A DNA stretch of 64,000 nucleotides from Perkinsus olseni (Eukaryota), in the NCBI GenBank assembly GCA_013115125.1, contig JABANN010000017.1, positions 62,001-126,000 on the forward strand, in the 5' to 3' direction. Under the pieces are notes generated by a model. The model did no database searches. It worked only from the letters and a program-made list of their open reading frames with translations, and had not been told where the DNA came from. The stretch's first letter is position 1. Each line of letters begins with the position of its first letter. The position numbers and the translations under genes were made by a program. Shown in pieces: positions 1,397-56,200 of the stretch.

Positions 1397-3715
1397 TCAG
1401 AAGCCATGCATCATCTTCATCAAAGACGGCGGGAGGGGCGGCAGAGGGGCGGAGGAAGGAGAGGAGGAAGGTCGCGGAGCTGGGGGCGGCGGCGGACGAG
1501 GCAGGGGAGACGCGGGCTCATTCATACCAACTTTCTCCTCACTCGTGGTACCTGTACCAAAGCCTGCGCCTGCGGCCCTTCACTACACTGTCGCACCCTC
1601 ATCACTCTCTGCCTTCGCCTCTCGCTTCTTCTTCCTCTGCTCCCGCTTCAGCTTCCTCCGTATCGTTAACGGCGACTCCTCCGCAGGCTCACACACCTAC
1701 CACACTTTCCCTAACTCCAACCGACTAACCCCTATTGCAGTAACTCTAACACGCTACGAACAAGGCGAAGACCGGCAGTCAGCGAAAGTCGCCTATCACC
1801 TCATCAAGCGTGGCTCCATCCAACAGCATCGTCCGTGCCCTTACAAACTCGCCATGGAGGACCTGCCGAACGTACTCAACCCCTCTTCCCCGCCGCTATA
1901 TGTTACCTCCCACACTGCCTTGCTCATCGGGTTCACATCCTTCTTACTGATAGGGCATCTCATCACTAACACCGGCTCTTGTTGCGGCTGGGGCTCCTCT
2001 CCCTCTGTGCTCCCTCCCTCCTCATCTTCGAAGTACGAGATACTCCCATCGTAGCAAAGTATCTGCCCACCAGTGCAAAGGAGAAGCTACATTCCCTCTA
2101 TCGTACCGCCCCGTAACGAACTGAGATGTTTCCCCTCACGAAAATATGCAAGTCCATATTACCTCCGCTCCACCTGCCATTCTCTCGCTGCCATAAAGTT
2201 CGAAGAATTCCATCAACAGCTCCCCAACCGACTCTGAGTTATTCCGCAGTTCCGGACACTTGTCGAATATCTCCTCCCGAGAAGTCATGAAAGGGAGCGG
2301 CCGCAGAGTCCCGTCCATCCCGTCCCAGCCTTCACTGTTGGCCTCCTCGATGCTCTTACCACCACTACTATCGCCATCACTATCAGCCTCGCCACTTTCC
2401 AGCTTACTCTCACCTGCGAGTTGAACATTTCAAGCACTACACAGAAAATGCAACATGCCGGGATCGAACCCACGCCCTTACGCCTAATGCTGCCTACACG
2501 CCAGTCCTACGCTACCTTCACTGCTGCTTTCATCCTCTGCAGTAGCAAACAGCTCCATATCCTTATACAATGGCAAGATAGGATTCTGTCGAGTTTGTAA
2601 TAAATATACCAGTTGCAATATCAGCGTGTACTAAGGAAATGCAAGATCAGCAAGATTGGCAAGATGTCCCCCTCACCCTACCGTAGAAAAAGTCCCTTGA
2701 CTCCGATTATTAATTTGCCTGCGTTTGGCCCAGTACTTGATGACCCTACCCAGCACCCATCATCCCCCTTCCTCCCCTCCGCCGCTGCCACCTACCTCCC
2801 CAGCGTCCTCACTCTATGATCTAGGTCAGTCCACACTGCCACCAACTGGGAGTTCTCTATCGCTACAGTATTATTGATCGATATATCCAACACCTACTCC
2901 GACACCACTACCAATGCCTTATGCCAGGTGTCCTACATTCTTTCCGTCGCTATCGAACACTTTCGCTACCGGCACCCGAGCCCCGCGGATCAGCATCACT
3001 CTGGCTACGTCCTTGGCCGTATCAGCGGGGGCCGCCATCATCAGCCGATTCAAAGCCGACTTGATCGCTTGAAGTTTCGAGACGCATATCTAAACCCGTA
3101 CAACTCCTTTCCCACTTCGCAAAGATACGTTCAGCTCCACAGATCCTAGACAGTTCAGCAGGAGCTCCCCCAGTTGGAAATCACCTGTTTAGTCCGGGCG
3201 TTCTTCAATACCATACAAGCATCGATATCGGACCCATTAACCCAGAATCCATTCTCGCAGGAGCCGAAGGTAACCAATGACCCGCCCAACCTCGCCTCCA
3301 GCAGCGGCCGCACAGCACCCATCAGCCGCTGAAAATCGGTAATTTCGTGGCGCGCGGTCAAGCATGAGCACGCGGTCAAGCACGAGAGCACTCTTACCTT
3401 CTTGTGCATATACTGCTCCACTGGGGGCATCAAGGAATTATCAATACCCACCACTTCCCCCGTCACCCTCCTACGCTGCTCCGCTTCGGGAGTAGACCGG
3501 CACAGACTAAAGCAGCAAGCATCCAACTGCACATCACCCAACCGACATCATCACCTTTCCGCTGCCTCCGATAGGGCCCCTCCTGCTACTCCTATTCCTG
3601 CCGCTGTCGTCGTCGTCGTCGTCGTCGTCGTCGATGTGGCATGGTTGAGTAAGGCCACACTCAGCCGCAGCAAGGCGCTAGGGGCTGCTGTTACTGCAGG
3701 CGCTGTATGAAACAT
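1397..3715 (-). CDS. Non-canonical poly(A) polymerase / terminal uridylyltransferase (Cid1/PAPD family), multi-exon
   Basis: Pol-beta motif TFGSCENGFWVNGSDIDAC, DISINNTVAIENSQLV, IYYLQTRQNPILP, PAP-associated SVGELLMEFFELYG; start MFHTAP inferred. Confidence 0.85.
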
Positions 3716-3789
3716 GAAGAAACAAACTGGCAAGGAACAATATTATAACCACACTGAGCTCAACAAATCCGACTTCGAATAATACACCT

Positions 3790-4430
3790 TTAGTAGACCA
3801 TGATGACACTAATGATCGGAGGAGTTCCTTCAAGCCTTCGACTGCGACGTCAAAGGTGGTAAACTTGAGCCCTCCCTGGCCTCCTTGTGCCGGACCAGAG
3901 GGGCTAGCTCACTGACAGAGTCGCCCTGCCGTACCTGAGCTGTAATGTGAGGAAAGCGGAGGAGGGCCGCCTCACAAGAGCAAGATGCTCCTGCAGCTCC
4001 GTCAACTCTGACATCACTCGTTCGCCGAACTGAAAAATGTAGTATCCGAGGATCGATCTCAGGACCTTCCGCTTCACCTGATTCAACTGACGCACCCTCT
4101 CAACTGCGTGGACAGACTGTTCCCCAATCTCCTGCCGCAACTGCTGCATGTTCTCCATATGGCTCTCCTTCAACCGCCGCACCAGTCGCTGCCACTGTGC
4201 CCTCTCACCAGCCATCCTCTCCTGCGTGAAATGTCGGGCACGGTCCGAAAGCGGACAGCCCCTACGCACCTTCATCTCCTTATTCGCCTTCCTTATATCT
4301 GCTGCTTGCGCGAATACCTTTCCTAGCCTAAATGACGACCCTCTACGGAGACACTAGCGCAGGGACACAGTCACGAACGTGTATCCAGAAACAAGGACTC
4401 AACCCGAGCAACAAGTCGCCGTTGACTCAT
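3790..4430 (-). CDS. Hypothetical coiled-coil protein, multi-exon
   Basis: Helical exon RHFTQERMAGERAQWQRLVRRLKESHMENMQQLRQEIGEQ with flanking splice signals; ends approximate. Confidence 0.5.
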
Positions 4431-4559
4431 GACTTTTCACAAGTGTTACAGCTTCGCTGAGCGGCAACCAGTGTCACCGGCGGTGACAGTCACTGTAAAC
4501 AGTGACAGTGTCACTAACATTATTTTTTTAACCAAGCTCATCCCACTAAAGGTCATCAC

Positions 4560-5711
4560 CAATGGAAGGGAGTACATCCCTTAATTCCGATAAAAACACG
4601 CATCCTCCTTCACGACCACACACACGGCGAGGCCATCTCACGACCTCTGTTTCATCATCAGCTTCTCCTCCCTCTCCCTCACTAACTGGGCCTTCAACGA
4701 TCGCACTTTCTCATACAGCTGTCCCTACGCTGGTATCACTGTAGACCAGAAAAGACGTCATAAAGTTACTTTCCCTGCTTTGGTAAAGTTCAACGCCTCC
4801 TCTTTAGCCTGCTTGGCTTGCATTAGCAGCAGCGTCACTTCCTTCATTTTCCGAGCCTGCTCCACGGTCCAGCCTACCACTTGCGACGATGACGCCTCCG
4901 GGGATCGAGCTCGGGACCTACCGCCCTCGTCCCCTTCACCATTCGTAGCTGCTGTTATCGCCCAGGACTGCGCTGAAAAACGACCCACAATTCATTCAGT
5001 TCCGCCCACCCTATTAACTGCATCAGCCTGACGGCCAAGTATAACTCCACTCCAACTGCCCACACGCAAGATAAGCAGTGGCATCTCACACCGCTCTCCG
5101 TCCACCGACCACGGGCTCGATTTAACCGAGACCGAGCAGCGCAGCAGATGGTCGATGCTCAGGAAGCTGGCATCTACTTCTAGCTCAGGTACCTCCTTAC
5201 TAACGGCTCGTTCATCGAGACCGGCAACTCCCGACACAACACAGCATTTAGGCCCCTCATGATGATACCCCCGCCCTGCTCACTACCGGTCTGGACTATC
5301 CGTAACGTGCTCTCCAATTCCTCTACTTTATCCAATAGCTCCTCATTCTCCCGTCGGAGTGCTGCAACTTTCCTGCAAACACCAGATACTACTCCAGCGA
5401 CCAATACGTGCCTCTTACGCTCGGACAAAGTCAAGACTGCGATGAGGCACCCCAGAGGCAGTGTATCTAGGAGGCAACAATACAACAGAGGAAGGCTTCC
5501 TCCTGAGACCTTTCAAAATCCACTGCGCCGGTCAGATCGGACAAGCACATTCAGAAGTCGATGATGCCCAGGCGGTTCCGAACACAACCTACAGGGAGGC
5601 TGTTGCTGCCACTGCCTGAGCCAGAGGATCTCCTTCTAAGTCATTCCGGTCGGTATCGGGTGGCTCTCCTTGACCAGAGTCGATACACGAGTCCGCGGTG
5701 ACGGAGTCCAT
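4560..5711 (-). CDS. Hypothetical protein with short coiled coil, multi-exon
   Basis: Exons KVAALRRENEELLDKVEELESTLR and WTVEQARKMKEVTLLLMQAKQAKE separated by GT-AG introns; ends approximate. Confidence 0.5.
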
Positions 5712-5963: not shown

Positions 5964-7233
5964 TCAGCAGGCCTTCCACCAGATGATGAAGAGGAAAAAT
6001 ACTAGGAAGATTGCCATGGTCGCGTGCTTGCGGAACATCGCCTGAAAGCAGCGGCAAATCACGAGCGACTCCAGTAGCCGAGCTTGTTGCCCCGGAGCAC
6101 CTGCAAATTGATCATCCTGGCCTTTTTCGAGAACGACTTGCTTGCATCCTTCAAGTCGTTAGCTCTTCTTCCGACATCCTCGAGCTTCTCACCTGATCAT
6201 CCACGAGAAGCATTCAGAGAACCCCGAACGGGCCTACTCCCCTTCATCCAAGCGATGACAAGGTCGAATACGCACCACGGTAGTCCAATAGCGGCGAAGC
6301 TGTTCAACACACTGAACACTTATCTCTTTTCCACCAATCTATTCATTGCTCTTAGTAGCGTCGAGCCAAGGCCGCCACAGGTCGCGTCAGCAGCGACCGT
6401 AGTACTACCTCTTGTTAATATATCATCGATGTTCTTCTGCATGATGCTGTTGACCTCCGTAAGGCTATCATTCAACCTGTTCAGCGCCCGAGTCGAGGTC
6501 GGGTCCCGATAGTCATTCCGCCTCTTCGTTATCTGCCGATCTGACCAACACCGGCACCTCCTTATGCGCAACATCTAGCGCTTCGCTCCGCCTTACCGAA
6601 AGATATGAAATGATAAGGCTTGGTGATAGCCTCTATATGCTGTCGGTAATCTAAGCTATCAGTGGTGCCAAACTCCCTCGCCAACTCCTCTACGAACGCT
6701 TGCCGGATTTCCTAACAGGGATGGGATTTCCCGCAATGCCCTTACCGGAGCAGCTAGTACCTCCAAAAACGAGAAGGCCAGCTTCTTCGGGTACCTCTGG
6801 TCACACAGCGTCATGTACACTATACCACCCTCCGTGATGTAGCTACAAAAACGTCACCGATTATCTAGCGGAGACAAGCACATGATAATAGCTTCCTTAC
6901 TGGAAAACATATGCTCCTGTATCGATAGAGCATTGTGGTGGAAACGAATTCATATGGCGGAGCAGCTGCTTGGCCTGAAGACGAATTTCCTATTCTCCGT
7001 GAGGCACAGCAGATCAGCCGCGAGAAGAAGACCTCCGTTGCCCAGCGAACAGAAATGAAGCTCCATTTTCCCGAGACTGTTCCCTGTCTACGGAAGCCTT
7101 CTCCACCCAGACTATGGTGTATTATTACCTGTTGCTTATACTTAGCCATTGCCTGCCCTTCCTTACCGCCATCCCAGGTCTCCGTGAATATGAGCCCATC
7201 CGATACGCGTGCTATGAATGTTAAGTCGCACAT
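5964..7233 (-). CDS. SEC22: Vesicle-trafficking R-SNARE Sec22 (longin + SNARE + TM)
   Basis: MCDLTFIARVSDGLIF, YPKKLAFSFLEE, KPYHFISFD, LTEVNSIMQKNIDDILTRGEKLED, C-terminal TM IFLVFFLFIIWW. Confidence 0.93.

Positions 7234-7764: not shown

Positions 7765-7805
<41 letters not shown>
7765..7805. repeat. (TGA)13 microsatellite
   Basis: Perfect trinucleotide run in intergenic/UTR DNA. Confidence 0.95.
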
Positions 7806-8010
7806 GCAGTAATGGTTATAATATAGTGATAGTTACAGTCGACGAGCTAGTGTATCGAAAAGGCCACTGCCAGCACCAGATGACTCCAATTTCTTCTCAC
7901 CCTCGACAGAGGGGCGGCATTTAGCCGACTTCTGCCGTGGAGACCCTCGCACCTTCTCATAGTACCTGATAACGCCCCTCAAGCGTCGAAGCAGCTGTCA
8001 GCAGCAGCTC

Positions 8011-9956
8011 CTACTCGTTCGGCCAGGAGTTCTCATCGTGTTCATCGTAGGGCCGCTCCTGATAGTCGATGTGAACGAAGGCTCGCTCGACCCGATCGAG
8101 ATCCTCGATTTTATGCTGCAGCCCCATGCCTAGCACACAGCCAGAACTCGAAGCCCATCACGCGCTACACCACCATCCACTACCGATATCATGGCTTTCC
8201 CTCAGCTGATACGTCTCCGGCAGGACCATCTCCAGTTCAACCAGGAAGTTCGGGCCGAAATGATACGCTCGGATGATATCAGCATACCTTGCGCAGTAGA
8301 AAGATGCAAAGCCTAGCGTGTAGGGGAACAACAAGCTGAAGACCCCAGAAGCTTACAGCTCGGGATGGTACTGATTGGCGATCTCCCTGATGTTAGCTAG
8401 GAACTCAGGATCCGCCGATCGACCTAAAACACCCAAAACTGAGAGCAACCATGGTGTGCACAGCGCCAATACCAGCAATCATTGCCGCCTGCTCCTTCCC
8501 GGTCTCAATCCATGATCCGATAATGTACAGTGAAATAAGTATCTGAAGGCCATTCCTGTACTCGATCCAACAACCGACGACGAGATAGCAAGGAAGCAAA
8601 CAGCTAGCTGAGCAGTCGATGCTACCTGCAATACTTCAAAAATTTACTGACACCTCTAGCTCCCAGCTTACAGCGGAGGTCGAATCCACCCACCAGAGTT
8701 TAGGGCTTTCATATGCCGCCCATGCTGCCAAGACAGCGCCCGTATTGGAGAAAACCTGATCGTCCCCATCCGTACTTCTCCTCACGATTCGAGCAGGAGC
8801 TACTACATCGTTGATATGGTCTTGAGCTAATGCCTTCACATTCTCCGAGTTGGCCTCTTCCCCCACTTTACGACAGTAGAAATACCTGCGCATGGATTCG
8901 AACCTGCCTCCAAGCGCACCATCTAGAATTACAGAGCTGTTTTAGATGCAATGGCCACGATCATAATAGCGGCGACCAGCGGTGTCATCTCCAGCGGGGG
9001 AACTTTGTCCGTACCTGAAATCGCCCATAACGTTCCGACTCCCCAGCAGAGCCTGAGCCCAGCTCCTAGGGTATTACCGATGTACTCCGCCAAGACCCCA
9101 GCCGACTCCCGTATGACCTCAATGGATGCCATGCCCATCCAGCATGCACAAATTACCTACTCGGATCGATATTGGAATCCTTTTCACTGCGCCGCGATAT
9201 TACCACGCCTAGAGGCTCCAAGCGCCTCTGTCCAGCAGGGTAAGTCTCGTTGTATGAATGGTTCGCCTTATGTTCCGTCCACCAGAGTACCTTGACGATG
9301 CTCTCCCTTCCCAGTACAGCCGTCCGTCGCTTACTAATTGTGAAAGTAAGTCCAATAGAGAGTCAACTAGGGAGGCCAGGACCTGATGTAACCCTAGAGC
9401 GATGAGGTCCATAGATAGAACAGCTGCTGGGACTCACCGCGAGCGAGCCACTCTCTAGGAGGCAGACGGCCTTGGCCAGAGTGAGAGCTATATTTACAAC
9501 GAGAGAAGAGTGTAGAGCCACTCGAATATTCATAGACTCAGGCCTCTTCTGAACCTAATAGACGTTGGATGATGAGGTATCCGGTTCAATCCCTGGTCCC
9601 GGTATTACATGAGGTGCCGGTACTATAGACGTCTCGCCAGATTCCGAAGGGGCGTATGTGACGGTGCCTTTATGAAGACCTCAACAACAGGCTCGTAGGC
9701 AAGAAGGGACGTTACCTCCGTACGGGTTGACAACCTGTGTTATGTTGGACCTTGGATGGAGGCGAGGTGAAGGAGCAGCAGCGCCACTGTCCGACCGAAA
9801 TGACCGGAGCATAGGCTCGGCAAGGCCTAACAAAGAAGCCGCATACCAAACTTTTCGTAAATCGTGAGACGTGGTACTCCGCTGTGAACTCTGATCTCTA
9901 AAGGAAGAGTAACAGGTAGAGTTACACGACCGAATGCCGTCGAATTGGCTTGTCAT
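8011..9956 (-). CDS. Cation diffusion facilitator / metal tolerance protein (Mn-CDF-like), multi-exon
   Basis: LASLVDSLLDLLSQ, ALAQDHINDVFSN, IRAYHFGPNFLVELEMVLP, ESHDIGMGLQHKIEDLDRVERAFVHIDY. Confidence 0.92.
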
Positions 9957-10500: not shown

Positions 10501-12079
10501 ATGATTTCAGAGGTTAGGTTTCCTGCTCAACCCAAGGGCCCTTCACTGGACGTCCTGTCAGGTGCCTCGTCGGTGACGGACGAAGGCCCACAGTGTAACG
10601 TCAGAACAGCTACACCCGCTGCTAAAAGGCCCAATAATCAGGGAGCGTAGGGAGGGAATTGAACCTGGGATGGCAGCATGATCTTTGTGTTGGCTAACCT
10701 CTTAGTCTGCGGCCCCATGGGACGAGCTCGTTGGGCTCTGGTGACAGCAGTGGTGCCTGGAGGAGCACCGTAGAGGACAGATTTGGCGATATGGTAGATT
10801 CAGACGATGATGATGTAATGAAAGGGCGGGGATAATTAGGCGGAGCGAGGCCGGCGGCGTATCTTTAGGAATCCGACAGTGGCAGCGTATCTTCGAGCTC
10901 ATATGCTGATTCTTCTGATGTTGACGAGCTCAGCAGCCTCAGAGATGAGCTCCGTGTTGGCCTCTCAGTAAAGATACTTCGAACCGAGGATTCTGATAGG
11001 ATTTGCGGTAAATCAGGTGAAGCGGCTTGAGACTCAGCTGAAGGCTTTGAGAGTCAGTCAGACGCCTTCCTCGGGCAGCACGAGCTTCAATAAGATACCC
11101 AGCCTCAACATCGCGGGTGCCGGTGCTGGACTAGGGTACAACACCGGCCAGGCCATGCGGCTCAGTGACTTGCACTTCTGTACGAGATTCCTGTCATGCT
11201 GCTTGAAGCCACACGACGACGGTACTTTAGGTACGTTCTTAGTTGACCCCTTGCCGGACCGTGCCACTATTCTACTAGCTAGTTTGGAGATGTGCTCCGC
11301 GTTGCGATGCAACTACTCCGAAAGTAGTCCCCGATAGTGTGGGGAAAGGCCTCACTTGAGGATGTCAGTTACTAATTACCCCTTTGCTAAGCTCCATCGA
11401 CGTCGCCTGGACCACGAGATTGTAGGGCACGCGCCAACCTCGGTGACTGGTTGATTGCGGCTCCCGAGGGCAGATACGAAAATTCGTATTGAAGTGTCGC
11501 AGCAGACAGAAGTATCTTGAGATGTCCGACTCCAGTACGAATCCCAGTGGCGATACCAGCATTACTCTGGTGTAGTGGCAGAAGGAATCTTAGGTTGAAG
11601 CGTGTATCTTGTGAATTCAGTACTGAAGTGAATCGCTTCGACGACCCTACCCAGACGCTGGAGGTGCTCTTGCATGGCGTGGCACTGCCAATGTCCGAGG
11701 TAAGGATGGTGGTTATCTTTCGAGCGGAGCGAAGCACTTAATGTTCAGCGTCTTTACCTTCTCTTCTTCGCGGCTGATCTGTCCCAAGCAGCCCCTCCAT
11801 TACGGAGGCGGTTGGAGGTCCTTCGCGTGGATGCACCTGGAGATGGTGCTGATTCTGCAGAACTGGCCCGCCAAAGAGAAGTCGTTACTATGGTACCTCA
11901 GGGCTTGCCAGTGTCAGCTCCCTTCTTCGACTTAGTCTCTCGATGACGAGGTTCACTCTCTGCGCACCACAAGCGGCCAGGATATACTTGTTCTATCCCT
12001 TCAGGTCGTGACGCAGCTGATCAATCGCCTGCAGGAGGAAGGCTTCGCCGAGGCCCAACTGCTGCAAGTGATCCAATGA
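10501..12079 (+). CDS. Hypothetical protein, multi-exon
   Basis: Exon-like segments (VKRLETQLKALRVS, VVTQLINRLQEEGFAEAQLL) separated by GT-AG introns; no family recognised. Confidence 0.4.
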
Positions 12080-12295: not shown

Positions 12296-13629
12296 ATGCT
12301 CGTTCCAGTATCGGATGGGTAATTTGATCCCTTTCTCGGTGGCCTCGAGCTGATCTTTGTGCAGGTCTGATGTCTACATGAGCGTACCTGTCCCTCCGAC
12401 CCACGCTGCACTCAAATACCGGAAGTATCTTGACGTATCCTTTGTGATGCTAGTAATGTTTGAGGTCGACCTGCCTGTCGAGGAAGATTCTAGGTATCTT
12501 TTATCAGGTGGTGTTGTCCTTCGGGCATATGATTTACGGAGATGGCTGGGGTGCGTTGCTGGACATCATGTTTGCTCTGCTGGGTTATGCTACTTTCCGA
12601 AGGTGATGCCTGACTTAGCCGAGTTCTCGGACAGTCGGGATCCGCTGTCTGATATGCTCTAGAAGGGACCGGTGTTGTGTATGAGCGCAGTAGTATGTGT
12701 CTAGTGGTTTGTGTCTCTCTCTGTATATCCAAAGGTCCCAAGTTCGATCCAGATGAGTTCACTTTTTTCTCCACTAGGTGGCTCTTGTCTGGCATCGCAT
12801 TCTATTCCTTTCTCTGTGCCTTCAACTGTGGTATTGACGTAGTCGCCACCATCAACGTCGGCATGAGTCTCGAGGTAGTGGTAGTGTACGTCCGGGTGGT
12901 GAGTGTCACTCCTCTGGGGCTTGGTCAGGGCATGGACCAGAAGACCCATGATTCTCTGAAGCTAACTACGGGGCTGGAAGCAGTTATACTTGGCACGATG
13001 ATCATGGTAATGGGACAGAAAGGGGCGTCACCGTTGCAACTTCGGCTATTTCCCGAAGGTGTGGTATCCAGTATGTGAGAATGTCCTCACTTTGTCAGGA
13101 TACTCTGGTGATGGGGGCCTGCTTAGTGTTCTCGTGCAAAATGTAATAGGGCAGAAGTTCCGGAAAAGTTGGTATGGGAGCGTCTTCCCAGATACACCGA
13201 TCTGCGAGCCAATCTCTACACGCAGCTAATCGGCGGTGGTAGGGACCATCCCTCCGCCCTTCCTATTCGCCGAAGACCTTCTTTCCATATCAGGTGGCCC
13301 TGACCCCACCGCAGCCTCCGCCTTCTACCTGGGTGGGGATGGGCAACAGAGTGCGGGCCAACAGCAACAACAACAGCAACCCTTGGGTATGCCACTATTG
13401 CAGCAACAACAGCCGAATGGTGGACAACCTCAACAGCAGCAGCAGCCGAGCAGACAGCAGACTAGTAGTACAGCGGGGGGGGGTTGGGAAATGTACGCGT
13501 CGTGCTTCTAGAAGGGTCATTGAGCATAGAGGAGAGGGCCTGCGTGATGGTGCCTGATGGATCCATGCCGTAGGTCAACATCCACAGCCGTTCATGCCGT
13601 TCCAGGGCCAGGCCCATAAATTGGATTGA
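12296..13629 (+). CDS. Hypothetical multi-pass membrane protein with Gln-rich tail
   Basis: Hydrophobic exons (LDVSFVMLVMFE, WLLSGIAFYSFLCAFNCG, LEAVILGTMIM), poly-Q linker, end QPFMPFQGQAHKLD*. Confidence 0.6.
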
Positions 13630-14003: not shown

Positions 14004-15162
14004 ATGCTCGACACTGGTCCTTGCTCGCAGCATTTTACGTTTTGAATCTGTCATCCTCAACGCTTCTACTCCGAGGAGCCATCGGTGGCCGGCGGCGGTG
14101 TGTTGGTGTATTCGGTGGGGCCTTGGGGCAGAGAGGGAGAGGACTCTCGACTAGGTATACCACGCCACAGGCGTTGTACTTTAAAGCGAGGCATGACTTT
14201 TATAAGCAGCTTTGGCTGGAGGTAGGATACTTGGGTGACGGGAGAGGAGGTTCATCTGGCTCGATTCAAGATTGAAGATACCTCTGCTGATTGAAGATCG
14301 GCGCGAGTGTCGGTGCGACGTAGATTTAGCAGGGCGTTGTAGGTGAACAAATTCGTCGAAAAGCCGGATGGCATCCAAAAGACGAGTATGTCAACACCGC
14401 AAGAGATACGGTCGTTAGCGCCGAATAATGGTGGGTGCGGGGATCGAACCCGGATCTAAATGGACGTATCGCTGCAGATCCGGAGTGTCAGAGAGCGGCT
14501 AAGAAGGCTGCTGAGAGTATTAATGCTGTGATTGAGTTGCGGCATGAGATTGATGACGCTAAGCTTGAGCGGCAGCGGATGTACACCCTCCCCACCCAAT
14601 CTAAGAGTAGCCCACCGCCGCCGCCCGTTGGGATGGAGGAATGTTGTGGCAGCAGGTCAGAGCAATAAGGAGAACCTGTCTCTCATGCTCACTGGGATTG
14701 CAGGAGCAGCGGCGTCTGCTGTCCATCCGATATTCTTGGTGGTACGTCGGTCGGGGAGGAGGTTCTATCGCGGTGACGGCGGGTCCATCGAGGGATTCCT
14801 TCCGCTGCATTTGAGATTATCTAGAACTAGCCGCGCGGGCGTTTAGGAAGGGAGACAGGAGCTCCATCGTCGGCGTTATACGAATAGGTTGGGCGCGCGC
14901 TTTTGGCTTACCTTTCAGTGCTGGTTCGCTGGATTTGCTATGTATCGGAGTGCGACGTCTAACGTCCGTGAGCGGTTCAGATCGCAGGAGAGGATGGACG
15001 ACATCTCTGATGAAATTGAAGAGATGACCGGGAAGGTTAAGAAAGAGCTAGAAAATGTACGTGATTGCTTGGTATGCTGCACGCATGCACAAGATGCGCT
15101 CCTTGCAGCTTCAGTATGGTCTGGTTGATTACCAAAAGAAGATGCGCGAGCTGAAGCCTTGA
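14004..15162 (+). CDS. Hypothetical helical protein, multi-exon
   Basis: Exons YTTPQALYFKARHDFYKQLWLE, PECQRAAKKAAESINAVIELRHEID, LVDYQKKMRELKP*; start uncertain. Confidence 0.5.
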
Positions 15163-15297: not shown

Positions 15298-17320
15298 ATG
15301 TATGAGAATGCGAGCACCCATCAAGGCTCACAGCCACCACCTTCCTCCTTGACGGGAGGCTACAGTAGCGGTGGCCACGTGTCTATCGAGGAGGCGGCGA
15401 GGAAGGCAGCGCAGGCGTTGATGCTGGCTGGAGAGGGCGATAGGTAGTAGGGCGGCCGAGGTTGGGTTCGGAGAGGACGGTCACGTCGCAGGTATTGTGA
15501 TGATACTGGTAGTGAATCGGGAGACTTTTGTCGAGGGCCAGAGGAGGATGAGAACTGTGGTCCTGAGAGGAGGGAAAATCAGAGCCCCTACACCACCGCC
15601 TCCGCACCGGTAGCTACACCATCGCCGCCATGCAGTACATCGGCGGTATCGGGCGGTGGCGGTGATGCAGAGGCTGTCCCGAGCAGCAGCGGCAGCAGCA
15701 GCTCCAGCTGTCAGTATTACACTTTCCCTACCAGAGTTTACTCCTTGGCGGTGGGGGCTGATGGTGATCGATTTGCAGTGGGAAGTGCCCAAAGGCACTC
15801 TATGAACAATTATATCGCGGTAATTCCAGCCTGTGGGGATCGAACCGGCGACCTTTCCCTCTAGATAATCGACCCTGACCCGTCGGAGCCATGTGGTCTG
15901 AGTGTATCGGCGACATGTCGGCACGGCTTCCCGCCCTCTCACGTGGGCCATCCTACGCGTGGAGTATCTTTCGATCCGAGTTCTCCTGTAGGTCCTGTGG
16001 ATGCCCACATCAGCAGGTCCCCTCAGTAGCGTCACGTTTGCCTCGACTTCCACGAGTCTCCGCTTGTGGCGGCTACAACAACCTGTGGGAGGCCAACAAC
16101 AGTATGACGAGGACGACCAGCAACAGCAGCAACAGTCGTCAGGGGGCCCTACTTTGCCCGGTAGTGTTGAGCAGATAGCGAAGCTTCAGAACACCCACAA
16201 GGTGGTGTACGGAGGCGGTCGTTGGAGGATGATTGGTGGTGTTGTTGTTAGGCTGTGAGCGCCCCGATGACTTCATTCGACTGGTCAGTGGTATCACCAG
16301 CAAGAGTAGCGGCGGCGGCTGTTGACACCACCATCACCTTGTGGGACGTCAGTCGAGAGAAAATGGACACGCAGATGATCGCCCATGACAAGGCTGTACT
16401 GGATGTGGCTTTTGCTGCTGATAGTGACAAAGTGCGTGCATGAATCGTCATACCATAAAATCCGCAATTCATGGCTCATTCTGCCAGATCTTTGGGTCGG
16501 TATCGGATGATGGCTCCCTTCGGCTGTTTGATTCTCGCGACTTGGACCACTCTACTATAATGTGGGCAGAGGGCGGCCCTCAGCAGTAGCCTTCTGCATG
16601 CCGGCCCGGACGGGCAGGTACGAGTCGCCATCACCACCAGGATCGAACGCGCCGCCGCCCCCCTTGTACAAGTTGTATTGGAACAAGTGGAATCCTGTAG
16701 GCTGCTGCCACTGCTGCTGGCCAGCACCGTCCTTGGATGCTGTCTCCTCAGCATCTCATCGCTACATTCTCGGAGGACTCGATCTACGGTCTTGTATTCG
16801 ACACTCGTAAAGGTGAGACTGGTCGCCTGGTGTATGAGGAGGCAATAGCAAGAGTGGCAGGGTTCGAGTCCATCAGCCTCAATCCCATTTGCGAAGGAAG
16901 CCTCGACACCGTCTGCGCTGGCACCAATGCCATGGCATGGTGCAACTCTCATGCATTGTCTACGTGTCATGCTGATGGGTGGGTCATCATAGCCTGCTTC
17001 CACTGTCACTGCGCCACGAAATTGGGCACTTGTAGGAGTGTGAAGTTGTATGATCCTTTAAGAAGATATTCGACATCGGAGAAACCACTGCTCTTCGCGG
17101 AGACCAAGGCGAGGAGGACGCGAGTTCGAACCCCGGTCGGGGTATTTTTTACAGATGTCAGGTATCAGCGCCAGATAAGCCAGCAGAGTCACCCGTTGAG
17201 TTGGTTAACATGGCTTGGATACCATCTGCCTCTGGTGGATCGGCCAAGATGGGCCTCATCCACGGCCGGACACTACAAGTGCTACAGCAGCGTTCTCGCC
17301 CCTTCCACCGCATACCATGA
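15298..17320 (+). CDS. DCAF7: WD40 repeat protein DCAF7/WDR68/AN11-like
   Basis: APMTSFDWS, VDTTITLWD, TQMIAHDKAVLDVAF, FGSVSDDGSLRLFDSRDLDHSTI, PLYKLYWNKWNP are diagnostic of the WDR68/AN11/TTG1 family. Confidence 0.88.
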
Positions 17321-17797
17321 TTAGGTGTTGTCGGCCTGAGGGAGGAGGAAGCGGTCTCCAACAGCATCGTCGTTGCTGGGCATGCTGTATTCTACATACT
17401 CCTGTTTCCCTCTGCCATATTGCCATTGATCTGTCTAAGCGTTGCTATAGTACGTTAGTGGCATCGGGAGGAGGAGTCCAGCAGCAGCAGCACCACCACC
17501 TGCGGCGGCGGCCGCGACCCCCCTTTCTGTGTATTCTGATGAATATGATGATGCATATGTATCAATCATAAAGTGAGTAATATTATTGATGGAAGAGCGT
17601 CATGCATTCGTACCTCTCCAACAACCAACAGTATCATCGTTCTTCTTATTCCCTGTTGTCTTGGACCCTATTTTTCGTCGTCATTATCGTCATCATTGTC
17701 GTGGTCGTGAAGTAGATGAGAAGTCATTTAGAAGAGGAGGAGCAGGATGAGGAGAATCAGCTGCGTTAACACTTGTCAGTGTAGTTACTGTATACGT

Positions 17798-18361: not shown

Positions 18362-21300
18362 ATGAGGCTTCTTGCCACCCGTTCGACCATCGGGCCTTTT
18401 CTGGGGTCTTTGGTGATCCTGTTCACTTTGGTCGACCACAGTGAGTGTAAGGTGGCTCATTCGCTGCCGGGGTGGGTGCCGAAGGACGTCAAAGATGCGC
18501 TCAAGGAAATGAAGAAAGAAGTACGTGTTGGAGGAAGCGAGGGTGATTGCGTCACCTGCGTCATGTCAGCAAAAGGCGACCAAACATCTGTTGTCCGACC
18601 ACACCTGTGCACTGCGCAAGAGTCTCATAGAACTACTGGAGGAGGTGCCCGATAAGGATGTTGGCCTGGCCAAGATAAACCTCATGGCAGAGTTGGGCCT
18701 ATGCAGCTGGTGGAGAGATGAACATTATTGTAAGGGCTACTTCGTGTCAGCGGTTAGCGTCCCTGTCTGTCACTTGGTGGGATGAGGGATCGACTCCCCC
18801 ATGTCGCATTTCTCACCTCTCAGTGGCGGCAGAGAGATTCCAGCGGGCTATTGATCTGACGGGCTTCAAGAAATTCAAACAGTTCATTGATCATGGTAGG
18901 CTGATGCTTCCCCACTGGCTCCGCGATCGCACGAGTTCGATCCCCTGTCAGGGCTCGGCCACATCATCGAGGCCAGCAACGCGTCCAATTACATGGTTGA
19001 GGTGAGTCGCTGAAACTGCTTCCTCCGCCACACCGCTGATTCGCAGGGCAAGTTCGAGTCGGCGGCCCTCCATCTGCGAGCCCTCAAGAGACTGATGCTG
19101 AGGGACGAGGCTTGGGCCCTGGATGAAGTACTGCGGAAGCCACCGGTAGGAGAAGGGGAGAAGGTTATGTTGCTCTGACGGCGGCAACTTTCAGATGGAC
19201 CAATTGAAGCCGCATGAGAGGGAGCTTGTCAAGTCGAACCCTGGAGATTTCCTCCTCAACAATACCTATGTAACACGGCTCATTACGGTTGGGTAGGTGA
19301 CAATGGTCGTAGGTGGGGGTGGTCTATAGAGGATGGACTGTCGCAGCGAAACAGCAGCTGAGGTTCTGCGAGGCCAATCTTATCGGCTTGGACGAGGGAA
19401 GATTGGTAATAGGGCGAGAAACAGGGCGAAATTGCCGTGCTCTTCGTGAGGGGGGCGCTGTGGGTTCCATAACCAGATAAGGCGTTACTACGATCACAAA
19501 GCTTAAAGCGAGTATGGAAGATAGCCTCTGATGGGTAGAGGAACTTCTGGAGATTTGCACTGTGCGATGAAGAATCCCTCTACTTCACAGTTCGCAAGCG
19601 ATTCTCGGAGGGGACGCTACATGTGGTCGACTTATTCTCAGGCCAAGAGGGAGAGAATGGGCGGTGAGACTGACAACACGGCGTACCTCCAGGGTGTCGC
19701 TGCCGAGCCAGTCATGCCTTGGAGAAGCTTCCAACTGCCCATCAACCTCTACGAACGCCGCGAGGTGCTGCAGCATGGGGATCTTATATGTGATATCATT
19801 CTTCGCTCCGCTGTAATTGCAGGAGTTACTCAAAGCGGCTAGGAAGGGCAAGACGCCGAGGCGACCCAAGGCAGCAGAGCTCATGGGAAGAGCAGGGATT
19901 AGAGGAGGCGACTGTCCCAAGTAGGATCTCGCTCTCTTGCATTCTCTCGCAATTCCTCCACGGGGCCAGATACTCGGCCCTTTGTGATCTACTATTGGGT
20001 TATGAGACGCCAGTACTGGTTGATGCTTCTACCTATGTGGCTGGCATGTTTAATTCCATCATTCAGTTGGTGCCGATGAACGGTTCCAAGACGACCCAGG
20101 AGGTTGGGGTAAAAGCTTACCGTCTCTGCTCAGTTCCTATACTGCACTTCTCATCAGAGTTGCTCCAATAATGCTGGTCTCGCGATGGCCTTCCCGTTGA
20201 ACGATTCCGAAGACCCTGATGACCCGATCATGCTCACTACGGAGAGTGTCGATGTGAGAGTCAATATTATTCGGGCGAGCGAGATTGAAATCGATTCGAC
20301 AAATTATGGCTCATTCTCGAGGTTGAACTCACTTTTCTGCAGTTACCCGGCATTGCTCTCAGCAGCGAGCCTGTTGTCGTGGATCCGTGTAGCGATCCAA
20401 AACCGGCCATAACGCGGTCGGGAGGTTCCAGGGATGTCGTCTACGGTAGGAGGGCACCTCGCTGGATTAAAGCTTATTGTTGTGATTCAGTGCTGGTGGT
20501 GGAGTTTTGGCATCCTGCGGTAACTCTCTACGAGAGGGTGGCGATAATAGAGGGAAGCGGGAGCGGGGCTAGAAAGGGTCGCGAGTCCATCAGAGTTCAA
20601 GAGGTGAGTGCGGCCGGTCCGCATAGCAGAGGTCTCAGGGTCGATTCTCGCGAACGGCGTTTCTCTCGATTCGGTTTTGCCGGCAGGTTACTAACGCCAT
20701 GATGGATCGTCTAAAGGAAACAGAGTCATTGTGGCCGAAGGTGTTCGATCTGTATCAGCACAGGCGTTCGCTCTCGCCATTGGGCCCGGATGAACTGGTG
20801 GAAGATGAGGTGTAAGTGGTGGGAGGGGTCGCAGGTTCGATCCCATGTAGCAACACTTTATCGCAGTGAATTTCTCGTCTTTCTAGGATCGAATACCCGA
20901 GACCGAAGAATAAGAAGTCGAAGAAAAGAACGCGTGAGTTTCCGTGATGATGGATTCATCTACGAGAGATCTGCTCGGCTAGCGTTAAATTGAGGCCTGT
21001 CGAAATAGCTGTCAGAAGTCCAGTCGGGACTGTCCGGAGCGGCATTAGAGCATGCAAGCCTCGGAGCGGCGGTATTCAGCCATTCCAGGATCAAAGCACC
21101 TCTTCTCAGAGGATCCACCGGAGGACTCCCTTGAGGTCACCAACCTAAAACAGCTGGTGAAAAAGCTAAAGGCAGAGCGGAAGGCAGCTATTAAGACTGC
21201 CAGTGCGAAGGAAGTCGCAAATATGGACGATGCTCTGGACTATGTGAGATAGCGCTCGTCCTAGCGATCGATTTGGTTAGTTCTCATGTGCCAGGCCGAG

Positions 21301-21911: not shown

Positions 21912-23576
21912 ATGTTCCGCCAGCAGAACAGGAGCTGTAGTGTGTTTGTGGGAAATGTTCCGTAATGAGGGTGGACGATATCCTGAGGGAGGAGAGAGCC
22001 GGCGTGGTCAGATACGATGTGGATGAGGAGCAGTTGAAGACCATTTTCTCGACAGTCGGCCCTGTGGTCAGCTTCCGGCTGATGCACGACAAGGTCACTG
22101 GACGGCCCAAAGGATATGGATTTTGCGAGTAGGGGTTGATGGCGACTAGAGGGGGAACCCAAGCCCGCTACGATAGATACGCAGATCAGGAGACGGCCTA
22201 CGCTGCCATGCGGAACTTGAATAATGTCGAGTGTGGTGGTCGACCGCTTCGAGTTGACTGGGCCGATCATGAGTTGAGAAATACCGAAGGTGACTGAGCT
22301 GGCTGTCCTGTTGATGCTCTGCCGAATGGGAATCGTCGTCAGGCGTGCAACGATCGATCCAGCGTAGTGGCGCTGATGTTGGACGGAGCAATGTGAAGGT
22401 GGGCTCAGTGTGGTCTGGTGAGTGGTATTTTGCGACGTGTCTTGGTAGGTGAACAATAAGAAGCTTCGAGAGTTCCAGCAGAGGCTCACTGATGAGAATG
22501 CAGAGCATCTGGCCTTAGATGTAGTGCTGGAGGAAGGCAGAGCAGCTGCAGGGGGGAGTGACGATGGCGATGCTTTCAGGTGCAAACCCACAGTGAGATA
22601 GCCGCCCTGTTGGACCAATGGTCCACTGTGGAGTTGTACCAGTTCCTTGGACATTCACAGAAGTTCGTCAGCGACAATCCGGAGGGGGCACGTAGGGAGA
22701 AGTCGCTCCTACTGGTTCTGCCAGCTGTTTTACTGTAGGGGCACTTTTCGTGGCCCATCCCCAGCTGCCGCTGGCCATCAACCATGTCGCCTACTTGCTG
22801 GGCTTCACGTCGGAGCCAACCTTCCCGATGACGCCAGATGATATGATGTAATGGAGGGAGGAGGAATTGAACCTGGGACCTTGTGATGGATAGTCAGTGT
22901 CAAGAACCACTTGAGCTGGTCTTTAGATACGCTGAGGAGCGTATAAAGGCACTGAGACAGCACCGAGTATGCCCTGTAAAGCCCATCCAGCCACCTCGGG
23001 CAGTTCCTATCAGCCTAGTCACCGATCCTACCGCCCAACTTCAGGCTGGTGAGTGTCCCAAACCATCGATATGGGCTCCAGATTGTAGCGGTGATACCTC
23101 AGGTATTTCCAACCCGATGATGATGAGCGGCGCGTTGCCAGCCGGCGTTCTCGCTGCAGGGGCTAGTATAGCAGGAGCGAGGTGAGCCAAATTATCCGCA
23201 CTCTAGCGGAGCGAAGTTTGAACCATTTTTTAGAGCAACAACAGTCGGTACCATCTCGCGGGTGACCTCTATTGGTACGAGTGGAACGGCTCCTCACGCG
23301 GTGAAAAAAGTAGGAAGCTCTGGGAAGATCGCCCTTGCCATCGCCTTGCCTCTCAGCCTGCTGTGGACATCGCTGCATTGCCGGCCGACACCAAGGAGGC
23401 ATTGCGGAAACAGTTGGCTCAGATGACACCGGCTGAGGTGAGCACTGCTGATGCTGTGCCTGACTTCTATCATCCATACTTGATGCCAGGTTGCCAGCCT
23501 ACCTGCGGACGTGCGAGAGATCATGCAGCAGCTAGCAGTGTCCACTGGTGGCTCTGCTGGCTCGGCAAGACGATAA
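21912..23576 (+). CDS. CSTF2: Cleavage stimulation factor 64 kDa subunit (CstF-64/Rna15)
   Basis: [78 protein letters not shown], hinge and C-terminal helical region. Confidence 0.9.
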
Positions 23577-24699: not shown

Positions 24700-25662
24700 T
24701 TACTGGTTGCTCGCGGCTACCTTATTGTTGATAGCGTTCTTGAACTCATCATAGAAGACAAGAACCAAAGCAGCACCAACACCACGAAGCATGTTAGAGA
24801 GGCCGCCCTTGAAGAAGCCCTGGACACCTTCCTCCTGGAAGACCTTGACCCAGCAGTCCCAGTTAGACGAGTACTGCACACTACCACCACGACCAGCCAT
24901 CATCATCATACGACGACGGACAGTATCGAAGGGATAGGACACTAAGCCAGAGACGGCAGTAACACTCTGAGCAAGGACGAACTTGGCAATAACATTAGCG
25001 TTCTTCTCATCCTTGAAAACGATGGGCTTGATGGTATCATAGAGACCGAAGTAGGCACCACGGTAGAAGATGATACCCTGGATGGACATGCTGAAGCCCT
25101 GGTACATGGACCAGAAACCAGTCCTCTTGCAGGTCTTGGTGATAACATCAATAAGACCACTGAACTCACGATCAGCTCCCTTGCCAACATCAGCGGCTAA
25201 ACGGGTACGAGCGTAATCGAGAGGATAGACGATACAGAGAGAACCAGCACCGGCAGCGGCGCCAGAGAAGACATTGGCGGCGAAGAACTTCCAGAATTGG
25301 TTATGGGGATCGTACTTGGGGAACATGCCCTTGATGCTGTCCTTGAAGGCGAAGTTGAAGGCCTGGGTGGGGAAGTAACGGAGGACGTTAGTCAAGTTGC
25401 CTCTCCAAAGACTAGCAACACCCTGCTCCCTGCAGCATCGCATGAAGCAATCGCCAATACCATTGTAACGGGCGACCTTACCGGACACGATATCGGGGTT
25501 AGAGTCCTGAGTCTGAAGGACCATCTTAACACGCTCGATAGGGGCCACCAAAGTCTTAGAGATGGCGGCGGAAGTACCACCAGTCATGAAGTCAACCAGG
25601 ATGGGGTACTTCTGGATGAAGCTCTGCTGGGATTGTTGCTTGCTTTGAACTGCACTAGACAT
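24700..25662 (-). CDS. AAC: Mitochondrial ADP/ATP carrier, intronless
   Basis: 320-aa ORF with three Px[DE]xx[KR] carrier repeats, [14 protein letters not shown] and the RRRMMM signature. Confidence 0.98.
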
Positions 25663-53190: not shown

Positions 53191-53246
53191 GGTGGATCTT
53201 TCACAATTACAGTGATGATGTCGAACGGAAGGAGAGGAGATACCCA

Positions 53247-56200
53247 TCACAGATCGAGCAGATCTACAGTGTTTGTTGATGGACCTGCAAAAACGTTAGA
53301 TGACCAGGAATCGAGACACCCATCGGAGGTCTTACCTTGACTCCGTCGACCGTAAGCTTCTGCCGAGGACGAGCCATCTTCCTCTGAGGCTCCCCTCTGT
53401 TGAGCGCTGCTGAAAGAACCAACACCATGTGCACGCGTGCAGACCAACTTTTCCCCAACCTTTCTGTTCGATCCTCTCCTTCTAGCAAGTCCTGCTGATA
53501 GTCGTCACCTGTGTAGTCGTCCGTATCATGTACCTTAATGACTGCGTAACCCAAACACCCGGGTTCGATCCCACCCACCCTCATTCTCGTGACAAAGTCC
53601 TCCGATGGTAGATAGAAGACGCTCGACATAAGTCCAGTCTCATCACAGAGCTTTGTCAGTAACTTCCGATGATACTGCCGCATATACGGTGACTCCACCG
53701 GCGCCCAAACCTGCCAGGCAATAGTCGCCGTCGCGAACGCCCGTCTCGTCAGTTCATCACCTCTGGCTTGTCGCACAGTACGACCTGCTTAGCCAGTTCT
53801 GGATCCGTACTGAGGAGCCTCCAGTAGAGATAACCCCGGTCCCTCAAATCCGGATTGCTACTGTACTCCGTACACAGTTGAAGGACCTGACAGCATCGAG
53901 TAAGGAGATGATAGGATAGAGACGAAGACCAGCCTTGCTATCGAGCGGCCCTTACCTGGGTGACCATCGGCTGCCCAACATCAGGACATTTCAAGAACAG
54001 CTTCACGATGGCCGTCAGCAGCTGCAGCTGTACACTGACTGGCTCATCAGTGAAGAACTCCATGAAGGTATTCAGGACCTGTATTGCGGGAAATGTACAA
54101 AAGTCAGCGGAGCGAAGCAGCCTACGTACCGCGTCAACGTTCTCTATATGCTCAGCATACTCTCCCAGCATCCAGATCATGCTCGCCTTCGCTTCCGGCT
54201 GATCCAAGGACTCCAAGTTGTCACATAGTGCCGAAATAGCCTTCTCGTATCTGCCAATGACCGAAGCGTGTACTCAGCACCCTACTGTTAATAACCGGCC
54301 AAAAAGCGACTGAGAACACTGCCGGCCAACGCAGATAGTCCCAGCAGCGGCAGAGGCCCTCATCTATCTTCCATCAACCACCCTCCTACTCTATATGATA
54401 TTTCCGCAGGATATCAGCCACCACCACTACCGCCTCCTGTACCTGAACAGCCGTCATGAGCAGCACAGGTCGTCATCCTCTGACCCCGCCATCCACCACT
54501 TACGATATGATTGACCTTCATATCGATGAGCTCGAGGAGCACGGGCATGGCCTTCCTCGCTACCCCATTCACTTCAACCGCTACTCGCCCGATCGCTCGG
54601 ACCTATGCATGACGACCTTGGTCTCAGGTGACCAAACAGCCGGCGCTCACTGCGCGCGAGGTGAGCAGGAGCGATGTGAAGTGACGCTCGATCATTACAG
54701 ATTATAAGATAACCCTTTGGCCTTCAAAACAAGACGTAGGTCAATCTCGCAGATTGTAGGTCAGCTCATCGACATACAGTCAGTAGAATCGGAACTCACC
54801 GCTTTCCGAGAGAAGTCTACATCAACATCAGCGGCATACTCCTTGAATTCCGACAAGACCTGCGAGGATGAATAGTCGACTGCACTTAGTCGATACGACC
54901 TCCCACCTGCTCGGCGTTCTTGGAGGTACACAGGCGGACCATCATGTCCACCTTCTCTATTTTCAAGTAGATAGGGTCGGTATACCTGAACCAACGCCGA
55001 TTCTCACATCGCAAATAAGCCAAATACTAGCACATAAGCGGTGAACCCGACCATCATTAGCTCAGAACAAGGAAAGGGATGCGGCGTATCTCTATACTAG
55101 TAGCAGTGTATTCAGATAGTCGGAATGCCCACGGAGCCCTGTAGGTATCGATGGCCCAGCACAGAGCGGTGAATGATCATCACGGATGATCATCAAACGG
55201 TGAGTCATACGCGGAAAGCCTCGGTAGTCAGCACGAGCAGAGTTCATGCTCTACGGTCGTATGGCCGCCATGCGCCCCAGGAGGACCCTCCCACCGCTCC
55301 GTTGTACTACCGGCAGAAAAAGATCTTCACATCACTGTTCATAACTTGGGGCCACTTTTGTACTATCAAGTTTAGATTGCGAATGGCTACATACCTAAAG
55401 ATAGGCCCGTTGCTCCCTGAAGAGCACGCTTGAAGCTAAGATGCGCCTACTGTATCTCTGGCGGGTTCGACAGGAGAGACACGAGCGGAGGGTGCAGCTT
55501 CTTCACCACCTGCTTCACGAACTCGTCGTTCTCTGACACCTTGTCCAAGTCGCACATAATCACTAACAACATCCACAGGATCCGGGAAAAATTTGGTATT
55601 TCCCCTTCACACTGACCTCTCACCGCAGCCATGACAACTGCCGGATTGGCATGCGAGAGCCGCGCCGTTACACGCTCGATAACACCTTCCGCATCCTGTG
55701 AACCTAGCAGCGACCTCAAGATACTTCCCCACTCCCCTGTGCTCACTGGTAGGTTCATAGAGAGCAATGCCGTCCAGCAGCATGACTTGCCCCCACTCGG
55801 TACACTCGTTAAGAGCTGAAAATGCAACGGTGTGAGCTGTGATGCCGTGGACACCCCATCTACCTGCAAGGAGCTTCTCAACCATGCCCGAGTTCATGCC
55901 TAGGACTGACGGATCCTCCTTGCTCTCGGACAACTCCAACAGACTTGCCACAGCGTTCGCTACGACCACCGGGTTCCTGAAATGACCAGGACTCAATTTG
56001 CTCGTCTCTCCTGGTGGAAAAAACAGCGGAAGCCACGAAATCATGCATGGCGACCGAACCCCCCGTGTCGAACGAAAAATTTCTCTACGCTACCGCGCAC
56101 TCCCAGCACTCGCAGCAAACGGCTGCCGCGACTCTATGGTCAGCCAGGGTTTACGATCTCCTCACCTGTCTCCAGTCATGTCCCTCAAAACCTCAATGAA

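Follow-up and report, generated by a model that had tools for sequence, protein, structure and literature searches.

How does a word of the transfer RNA (tRNA) T-loop come to stand in the short introns of unrelated genes? The question was raised by a stretch of 64,000 nucleotides (nt) of Perkinsus olseni (contig JABANN010000017.1, positions 62,001 to 126,000, forward strand; hereafter the window), in which the 11-mer GGTTCGATCCC, which corresponds to the T-loop and to the internal B box of tRNA genes, recurs on both strands. Perkinsus, a parasite of oysters and clams, is a lineage at the base of the dinoflagellates and a trans-splicing protist. Where the introns of intron-rich genomes come from is an old question, and most of the introners, as the intron-generating elements known so far are called, are DNA transposons or of unknown type. 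The feature is real and strongly non-random, and it was correctly spotted by the sequence-only reading of the window. We give an even chance to the explanation that the copies are a tRNA-derived short repeat of the RNA polymerase III (Pol III) type, present as several subfamilies, which has been inserted in genes either way round and is spliced out.

A T-loop word in short introns

The exact word was found five times, at 2460(-), 14440(-), 15836(-), 20834(+) and 53562(+), all of them the places first reported, against 0.07 expected, and five copies were reached in none of 100 dinucleotide shuffles. With at most one mismatch there were 9 copies versus 1.23 expected, and with at most two mismatches 32 versus 18.6, a count reached in one of 100 shuffles. 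The degenerate pattern GGTTCGANYCC was found 7 times (0.20 expected) and RGTTCRANYC 17 times (4.27 expected). When every 9- to 12-mer of the window was compared with an order-3 Markov expectation, the top-ranked words were GTTCGATCC (9 versus 0.44, k = 9) and GTTCGATCCC (6 versus 0.10, k = 10), and GGTTCGATCCC was first at k = 11 (5 versus 0.022). As the word ranks first in this unbiased scan at all three lengths, its choice after the fact, a worry that the sequence-only reading had itself voiced, is largely removed as an explanation. The variants reported at 8894, 10655, 17122/3, 18933/4 and 22863 are likewise present in the sequence. Five copies are exact, about three differ at one position and about six at two, a spectrum that would fit roughly 10% decay from one core word as a judgement and not as a computed fit.

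For the location of the word we used the 15 best supported of the 88 joints given by the read tool (869 nt), which were thus introns not picked by motif. TTCRANYC was present in 3 of these 15 introns versus 0.28 expected, and 6 of 2000 dinucleotide shuffles reached 3; a version of the test with mononucleotide shuffles agreed. The exon pieces seen in RNA had none in 4,769 nt versus 2.6 expected (Fisher P = 5.6e-4). Intronic enrichment over a dinucleotide background, on which the sequence-only reading had staked its case, was thereby found, and a recognisable T-loop word is present in about one fifth of the introns examined. In DCAF7 alone, TTCRANYC was observed in 2 of 10 introns and at 2 exon sites.

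A profile (nhmmer) made from 12 copies aligned on the motif and spanning positions -10 to +26 matched 13 copies at 10.5 bits or more, besides the tRNA-His gene of the window (11.0 bits), while the maximum in ten shuffled windows was 8.9 bits. Twelve of the 13 were training copies and were recovered by construction, and the one new site lies at 4889-4919(-) with 11.3 bits. Twelve copies, each with its conserved surroundings called the module below, are placed in GT-AG introns and the thirteenth (17123) at an exon/intron border (Table 1). The introns are supported by RNA in six cases (as joints in three and in part for 2414-2515, 4874-4921 and 15820-15864), by ortholog protein in two and by frame logic in four. 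For the five exact sites, which had all been placed inside introns, this held with RNA for 2414-2515, with RNA and protein for 15820-15864 and with protein for 53534-53578, and frame or splice-site logic points to introns at 14386-14477 and 20812-20886. Among the variants, RNA joints confirmed 8886-8932 and 10647-10705, frame logic suggests introns at 18896-18951 and 22848-22893, and 17123 stays at the border. The 17 matches to RGTTCRANYC consist of 11 intronic copies, the border copy, two exonic sites (16861 and 19051), tRNA-His and two others; the matches at 45198 and 50624 have no tRNA-like flanks. The part of the 17 outside the family agrees with the chance background of about 4.

Table 1. 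Motif-bearing introns and other features of the window, with the copy that each intron carries and its support
Feature	Position	Strand	Motif copy	Support and remarks
102-nt GT-AG intron	2414-2515	-	exact 11-mer 2460-2470, sense; T-run after module	RNA: the letters at the loose end at 2514 are those of the exon that lies below 2414
48-nt intron	4874-4921	-	AGGTCCCGAGCTCGATCCCC, sense	RNA exon piece ends 4872; putative acceptor
47-nt intron	8886-8932	-	GGTTCGAATCC, sense, end 8 nt before acceptor	RNA joint, 4/4 runs
54-nt intron	9555-9608	-	antisense	RNA joint, 4/4 runs
59-nt intron	10647-10705	+	antisense	RNA joint, 4/4 runs
175-nt intron	12603-12777	+	full-length sense module in last ~80 nt	protein: homolog P0009 joins ..YATFRR straight to WLLSGIAFY..
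92-nt intron (GTATGT..CTGCAG)	14386-14477	+	exact 11-mer 14440-14450, antisense	frame logic only
45-nt intron, DCAF7	15820-15864	+	exact 11-mer 15836-15846, antisense	RNA exon piece ends 15818; protein
56-nt intron	18896-18951	+	AGTTCGATCCC, sense, end 7 nt before acceptor	frame logic only
75-nt intron (GTAAGT..TTTCTAG)	20812-20886	+	exact 11-mer 20834-20844, sense, GGGGTCGCA lead-in	sequence logic only
46-nt intron, RRM-protein gene	22848-22893	+	antisense	frame logic
45-nt in-frame intron, beta-adaptin hinge	53534-53578	-	exact 11-mer 53562-53572, antisense	protein; GT..AG ends
Border case	17109-17188	+	AGTTCGAACCCC at 17123, then GGTATTTTTTACAG	a 53-nt intron must lie here
tRNA-His	62727-62798	-		only genuine tRNA gene, positive control; ARAGORN; Rfam 61.7 bits; 16/16 helix pairs; fold z -3.78
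GCGGAGCGAAG, exact word	400-410, 6581-6591, 19801-19811	-		
GCGGAGCGAAG, exact word	11724-11734, 23206-23216, 54107-54117	+		
Open frame	48943-50583	-		100% identical to Perkinsus olseni protein

Stops are present in all three frames inside 14386-14477 and the flanking open frames join in phase; removing the 56 nt of 18896-18951 joins ..KQFIDH(G) to LGHIIEAS.. over a frame change; and at 20812-20886, which has canonical splice signals, the open frame stops within the donor. The intron at 15820-15864 is joined across by three Perkinsus DCAF7 proteins (NNYIA to IIDPD), and the P. marinus beta-adaptin ortholog P0008 (TRMR to VHDTDDY) lacks exactly the 15 codons of 53534-53578, for which an in-frame insertion specific to P. 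olseni would be an alternative to an intron. At the border case the introns between 15819 and 17324 have to total 515 nt to fit the RNA contig, which is the sum of 416 (nine mapped introns), 53 and 46. There are two candidates for the 53-nt intron: 17109-17161, with GC-AG ends, would make the module intronic, and 17136-17188, with GT-AG ends, would leave the motif in the exon. The conservation of TRVRSP in the P. chesapeaki protein favours a motif at 17123 that would be coded. With this intron and the last, 46-nt intron (17279-17324, +), the C-terminus of DCAF7 becomes ..GRTLQVLSA, like ..LQVLNA of P. chesapeaki, and both introns are translated (..VRTPRSGYFYTCQ.., ..VLQQRSRLFHRIP) in P0005, the annotated homolog of P. 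olseni, probably as a mis-annotation. As some of the motif-bearing introns are in frame and free of stops, annotation reads through them, which was seen near 17123 and possibly at 53534.

Exonic look-alikes of the motif that are coding and conserved, and absent from the sites of the sequence-only reading, were found at 16640 (PGSNA), 16861 (GFES), 19051 (KFES) and 53466 (EDRT). The two copies of GTTCGAGTC at 16861-16871(+) and 19051-19060(+) stand 1 and 6 nt past an acceptor and both code for F-E-S, which may be chance or may represent module ends taken into exons. Another 11-mer, TCGATCCGAGT, a T-loop-like variant, is common to the verified introns 9157-9203(-) and 15943-15991(+), which have no full motif and may be further, more decayed members of the family.

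The window also holds other over-represented words. A second 11-mer, GCGGAGCGAAG, has six exact copies versus 0.067 expected and 9 versus 1.59 with at most one mismatch. Its copies are found on both strands, each in an intron-like GT..AG context and in either orientation to the gene, and no conservation of the flanks beyond 11-12 nt was seen when the six sites were aligned. Two 9-mers have seven copies each versus about 0.4 expected, namely GCCACGAAA (3343, 17013, 22746, 23864, 26047, 56032 and 59162) and ACCGGCACC (2968, 6550, 9613, 11116, 40094 and 41176/41188), and their contexts are mixed between intron and exon.

tRNA-gene layout and splice sites

The module has the layout of a tRNA gene: a D-loop or A-box word, 30-31 nt, GGTC-N3-GGTTCGATCC (B box and T-loop), 11-12 nt, an A and a run of T. 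The tRNA variable-loop lead-in reported for several copies is real as GGTC, 3 nt upstream of the motif, in 5 of the 13 copies and partial in others. The word [TA]AG[TA]GGTT stands 30-31 nt upstream in three of the 13 (12741, 22864 and 10656), and tRNA-His has its equivalent D-loop word, TAGTGGTT, at 30 nt; the remaining copies, in which the A-box word is lacking, are shorter or diverged. The position equivalent to the discriminator base is A in 9 of 12 copies and is followed by T-rich sequence at fixed spacing. A and B boxes of the tRNA type at canonical spacing with a T-run were accordingly observed, the presence of the B box in 13/13 being due to ascertainment. The fullest copy, in 12603-12777, runs GTCTAGTGGTT, 31 nt, AGTTCGATCC, T6, with the acceptor 9 nt further. 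The intron 10647-10705, on its opposite strand, spans the module from the D-loop word to the 3' end, and the copy in 22848-22893 has its D-loop word at 22906-22913 (- strand), inside the downstream exon, so that part of this module appears to be translated.

The tRNA fold, in contrast to the layout, is absent. Only 11 of 36 outer T-stem pairs are present in the copies, which equals random, and the acceptor, D and anticodon stems of the 13 copies, counted with flexible loop lengths, had 111 pairs versus 109.3 +/- 5.8 at random (P = 0.42), with tRNA-His as the positive control. ARAGORN and Rfam detected tRNA-His and none of the copies over the window, and Rfam gave no tRNA match at E <= 10 for the single 151-nt slice taken around 12741. 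Folding of 13 introns gave z-scores of -1.82 to +1.58 and no unusual stability. Random helices, ordinary folds and the lack of Rfam and ARAGORN matches together suggest that the source was already a non-folding derivative. The proposal that these introns derive from tRNA 3' fragments or a tRNA-derived short interspersed element (SINE) was therefore borne out for the tRNA-gene layout (GGTC, D-loop word, A and T-rich sequence) and not for fragments of a foldable tRNA.

Both orientations had been described, and in relation to the host gene we counted 6 sense and 6 antisense copies. Splice sites are placed at the edges of the module in both. Eight of the 12 introns are 45-59 nt long and thus little more than the module. 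In the sense introns 2414, 4874 and 20812 the donor is at or just before the module: the donor GTAGCG of 2414-2515 is at the place of tRNA nt 7-12, and the donor GTAGGTC of 4874-4921 overlaps the GGTC lead-in. In the sense introns 12603, 8886 and 18896 the T-run of the module and a nearby AG form the acceptor. Antisense introns start with the complement of the 3' end of the module. Three of them (9555, 15820 and 22848) start with GTAAT at the same distance from the motif within 1 nt; in 9555-9608 the complement of the 3' end follows, and in 15820-15864 the complement of about 30 nt of module and then TTTCCCTCTAG. Two others (10647 and 53534) start inside the tail of the module, the donor GT of 53534-53578 being 6 nt beyond the motif.

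As for the gene setting, many GT-AG segments with lengths of 44-129 nt are missing from the RNA contigs of four public runs, and in one single gene of the window 12 introns lie within 1.8 kb. Together with contigs carrying spliced-leader ends, this indicates a region of densely packed genes with very short introns. A report on Perkinsus (PMC3101222) describes introns mostly below 100 bp with GT/AG ends. RNA contig ends at 10402(+), 14029(+), 7253(-) and 10148(-) read ..CCATCTTGGCTCA or its complement, which we take to be the spliced leader, marking trans-splice acceptors and intergenic gaps of only about 50-300 nt. Of the other genes of the window, DCAF7, beta-adaptin and a small membrane protein matched Perkinsus homologs, and the comparison across species was made with proteins of other Perkinsus species. 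Among 26 verified introns the next exon starts with GT in 16 and with G in 20 (for example after 7966-8014, 9157-9203 and 17279-17324), and AG closes the preceding exon in only 4. As exon-start GT is common after acceptors, the intron start and the start of the next exon repeat 2-5 nt (GT, GTA ..), a one-sided AG/GT signature.

Parts of the 20-kb stretch outside RNA contig cover were kept out of the evidence. A two-strand Viterbi gene finder was dropped, as it predicted too many introns and found only 3-4 of 10 and 5-7 of 16 held-out ones, and no count given here uses its predictions; an open-frame heuristic around the motif sites gave no discrimination. A match to the mirtron family mir-1017 at 25601-25664(-) stays below the Rfam threshold (28.9 bits versus a gathering score of 50); the stretch begins GTATGTCTAGTGCAGTTCAAAGC and resembles a short intron that contains words like an A box and a B box.

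Origin of the copies

If copies of a tRNA-derived repeat land in protein-coding genes of Perkinsus in either orientation, the spliceosome would remove them, and insertions in coding DNA would persist only with splice signals at or inside the edges of the module. A sense copy could take its donor from a GTA that stands at the place of tRNA nt 7-9 or upstream of it, its polypyrimidine tract from the T-run and its acceptor from an AG close by. For an antisense copy the donor could come from the 3' trailer, whose ATTAC reads GTAAT on the complementary strand, or from the complement of the acceptor-side tail. Survival of coding copies only when they are spliced out would lead to both the intron-only distribution and the module edges at splice sites. 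Since the module makes up nearly the whole intron in the eight introns of 45-59 nt, insertion most likely created these introns. Common descent of the copies from a repeat, its transcription by Pol III, its mode of transposition and the origin of introns by its insertion are what we infer from the features described above.

Likeness between copies beyond the motif defines tail subgroups (8895, 20834 and 2461; 9583, 17123 and 18934; 10656 and 22864; 14441 and 53562). The top pair of introns scores 33 versus a shuffle maximum of 26, and 20812-20886 and the 8886 intron are, by eye, about 74% identical over some 35 nt. Several points weigh against a repeat that seeds introns. The likeness does not reach beyond about 17-35 nt around the motif, and neither a body, a tail, a terminal inverted repeat nor a poly-A was seen to be common to the copies. 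Target-site duplications were not found, flanking direct repeats were at chance level and introns were no closer to their own flanks than to those of other introns (P = 0.50), tests that short or decayed duplications would escape. No full-length intergenic master copy, reverse transcriptase or transposase turned up in the window, where no search was aimed at them. When metagenomes were scanned with the DCAF7 alignment, no relative was present among the 204 pattern matches. A single 64-kb window supplies all the data, and its first 23 kb hold 12 of the 13 copies. The copies were ascertained through the motif, and frame logic is the whole support of 4 of the 12 introns. Finally, conservation is higher in the core than in the flanks, a pattern that would follow from selection on the motif as well.

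Two observations stand beside these points. Each end of the intron 9555-9608 (GGTCCCGGTATTA and ATAGACGT) recurs as one half of an uninterrupted 20-nt stretch of the adjacent exon at 9613-9632; the case stands alone, and the general test of own flanks was negative. The part of the window from 23000 to 64000 has longer open frames and probably fewer introns.

It is also possible, as a more tentative proposal, that the copies represent a new class of miniature, tRNA-derived intron-generating element of the Pol III type which can be spliced both ways since its ends mimic splice signals, accounts for about one fifth of short Perkinsus introns and is perhaps still active. If true, this would be a new source of introns, bearing on how intron-rich genomes gain them, and the signals of the tRNA gene itself (GTA at nt 7-9 and the T-run terminator) would be pre-adapted to splicing. 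Intron gain could then be tested in the assemblies of P. olseni, P. marinus and P. chesapeaki.

Selection on the B-box words as DNA sites of TFIIIC, whatever their origin, with an action on chromatin or on the passage of RNA polymerase II, was another proposal of the sequence-only reading and is in our opinion unlikely, though it deserves to be kept in sight. The near-exact core word between differing flanks and the absence of tRNA helices would be expected from it, the even orientation suits a site at the DNA level, and GCGGAGCGAAG, which behaves likewise, hints at intronic DNA motifs as a wider feature. However, a site that serves TFIIIC alone would require neither the A and T-run at fixed distance nor the D-loop word at tRNA spacing, and the copies are intronic, none of them intergenic. 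By extrapolation, one site per 5 kb would put the number of sites in a genome at the order of 10^4, and the mismatch spectrum would be compatible with about 10% neutral decay. Should the B boxes nevertheless be selected TFIIIC sites, genes would contain thousands of them, which would be new for the way in which the genome of a trans-splicing protist is organised.

We doubt more strongly that pieces of real tRNA genes or their complementary DNA were captured independently, for example as filler in the repair of double-strand breaks, or that tRNA genes hosted in introns have decayed. The tails do vary between copies as they do between tRNA species, and the ends of the 9555 intron repeat 20 contiguous nt of the adjacent exon. 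A study of P. marinus (PMC3706591), in which Dada transposons are also treated, reports that five tRNA gene types are present there in over 500 copies. However, recent pieces should keep their T-stem pairing, and neither the outer pairs nor the other stems of the copies carry a helix signal; decay that erases the helices would presumably also erase five exact 11-mers. Eight of the introns are shorter than a tRNA, and the introns have no general likeness to their own flanks. With the tRNA layout kept, the helices absent, several tail groups, both orientations and copies dispersed over unrelated genes, a tRNA-derived repeat fits better than captured pieces of tRNA.

A splicing signal acting at the level of RNA in the pre-mRNA, such as an intronic enhancer or branch-site context, was also suggested by the sequence-only reading, and the strong enrichment in introns and the four sense copies near a splice site are in line with it. 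It is nevertheless very improbable, since in the 6 antisense copies of the 12 the transcript carries the complement; moreover, the position varies from 8 to 139 nt from the donor and the word is absent from about 80% of the verified introns. Chance or composition can practically be dismissed: the looser patterns do have a real background (4.27 expected for RGTTCRANYC) and four or five matches (16861, 19051, 45198, 50624 and perhaps 17123) resemble it, but for the core set this explanation is refuted by the shuffles, none of 100 reaching the observed counts, by the first rank of the word among k-mers and by the conserved features at fixed distances outside it.

Comparison with known systems

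The tRNA-derived repeat that we favour would share its working with introners. The introners of Micromonas are near-whole short introns of unrelated genes and almost reach the splice sites (PMC3488318), and those of Amoebophrya carry direct and inverted repeats (PMC7789003); introners are also known from Aureococcus, fungi and other dinoflagellates. As in the introners of these two descriptions, related sequence appears nearly to fill short introns of unrelated genes in Perkinsus, almost to the splice sites, and the module would supply at least one splice site. In contrast to introners, the likeness in Perkinsus extends over only about 17-35 nt centred on a B box of the tRNA type, orientation is 6:6, and no signature of terminal inverted or direct repeats was found in the copies. 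Our literature search gave no link of introners to tRNA-derived sequence or B boxes, and no tRNA-like introns in Perkinsus; supplementary tables and Repbase, which lay outside the search, may list Perkinsus repeats.

The tRNA-derived SINEs are Pol III retroposons with internal A and B boxes, and several subfamilies share a promoter core. Like them, the Perkinsus copies have internal Pol III promoter words and a degenerate tRNA-like head (the A-box word in only 3 of 13), with A- and B-box words at tRNA spacing, the cloverleaf lost and a T-run at the place of the Pol III terminator. They are also dispersed, occur in both orientations and form several subfamilies with a common promoter core. Unlike SINEs, they have no tRNA-unrelated body, no tail resembling a long interspersed element (LINE) or rich in A and no detectable target-site duplications. 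A family body followed by a LINE-related, A-rich or simple-repeat 3' tail was not found, the tails being T-runs or unique, and the units are only about 35-80 nt long, seen only in introns and with splice sites as their edges.

Extra-TFIIIC (ETC) sites of yeasts and animals are mostly intergenic and are defined by occupancy of TFIIIC. The Perkinsus copies are like them in having an isolated B-box consensus and no functional tRNA gene, a likeness known here from the sequence, and are unlike them in being intronic and in adding the GGTC lead-in, the A-box word and the T-run. With tRNA genes and pseudogenes (Rfam RF00005) they share the T-loop word, the variable-loop lead-in, the D-loop word and the geometry of the trailer, and they differ in having no helices, no covariance-model or ARAGORN match and no stable fold. 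Taken together, the copies would resemble introners in the way they work, they resemble the head of a tRNA-derived SINE in the way they look, and they fit the full definition of neither. They are best filed as an introner-like, tRNA-derived repeat whose introns would have originated by insertion.

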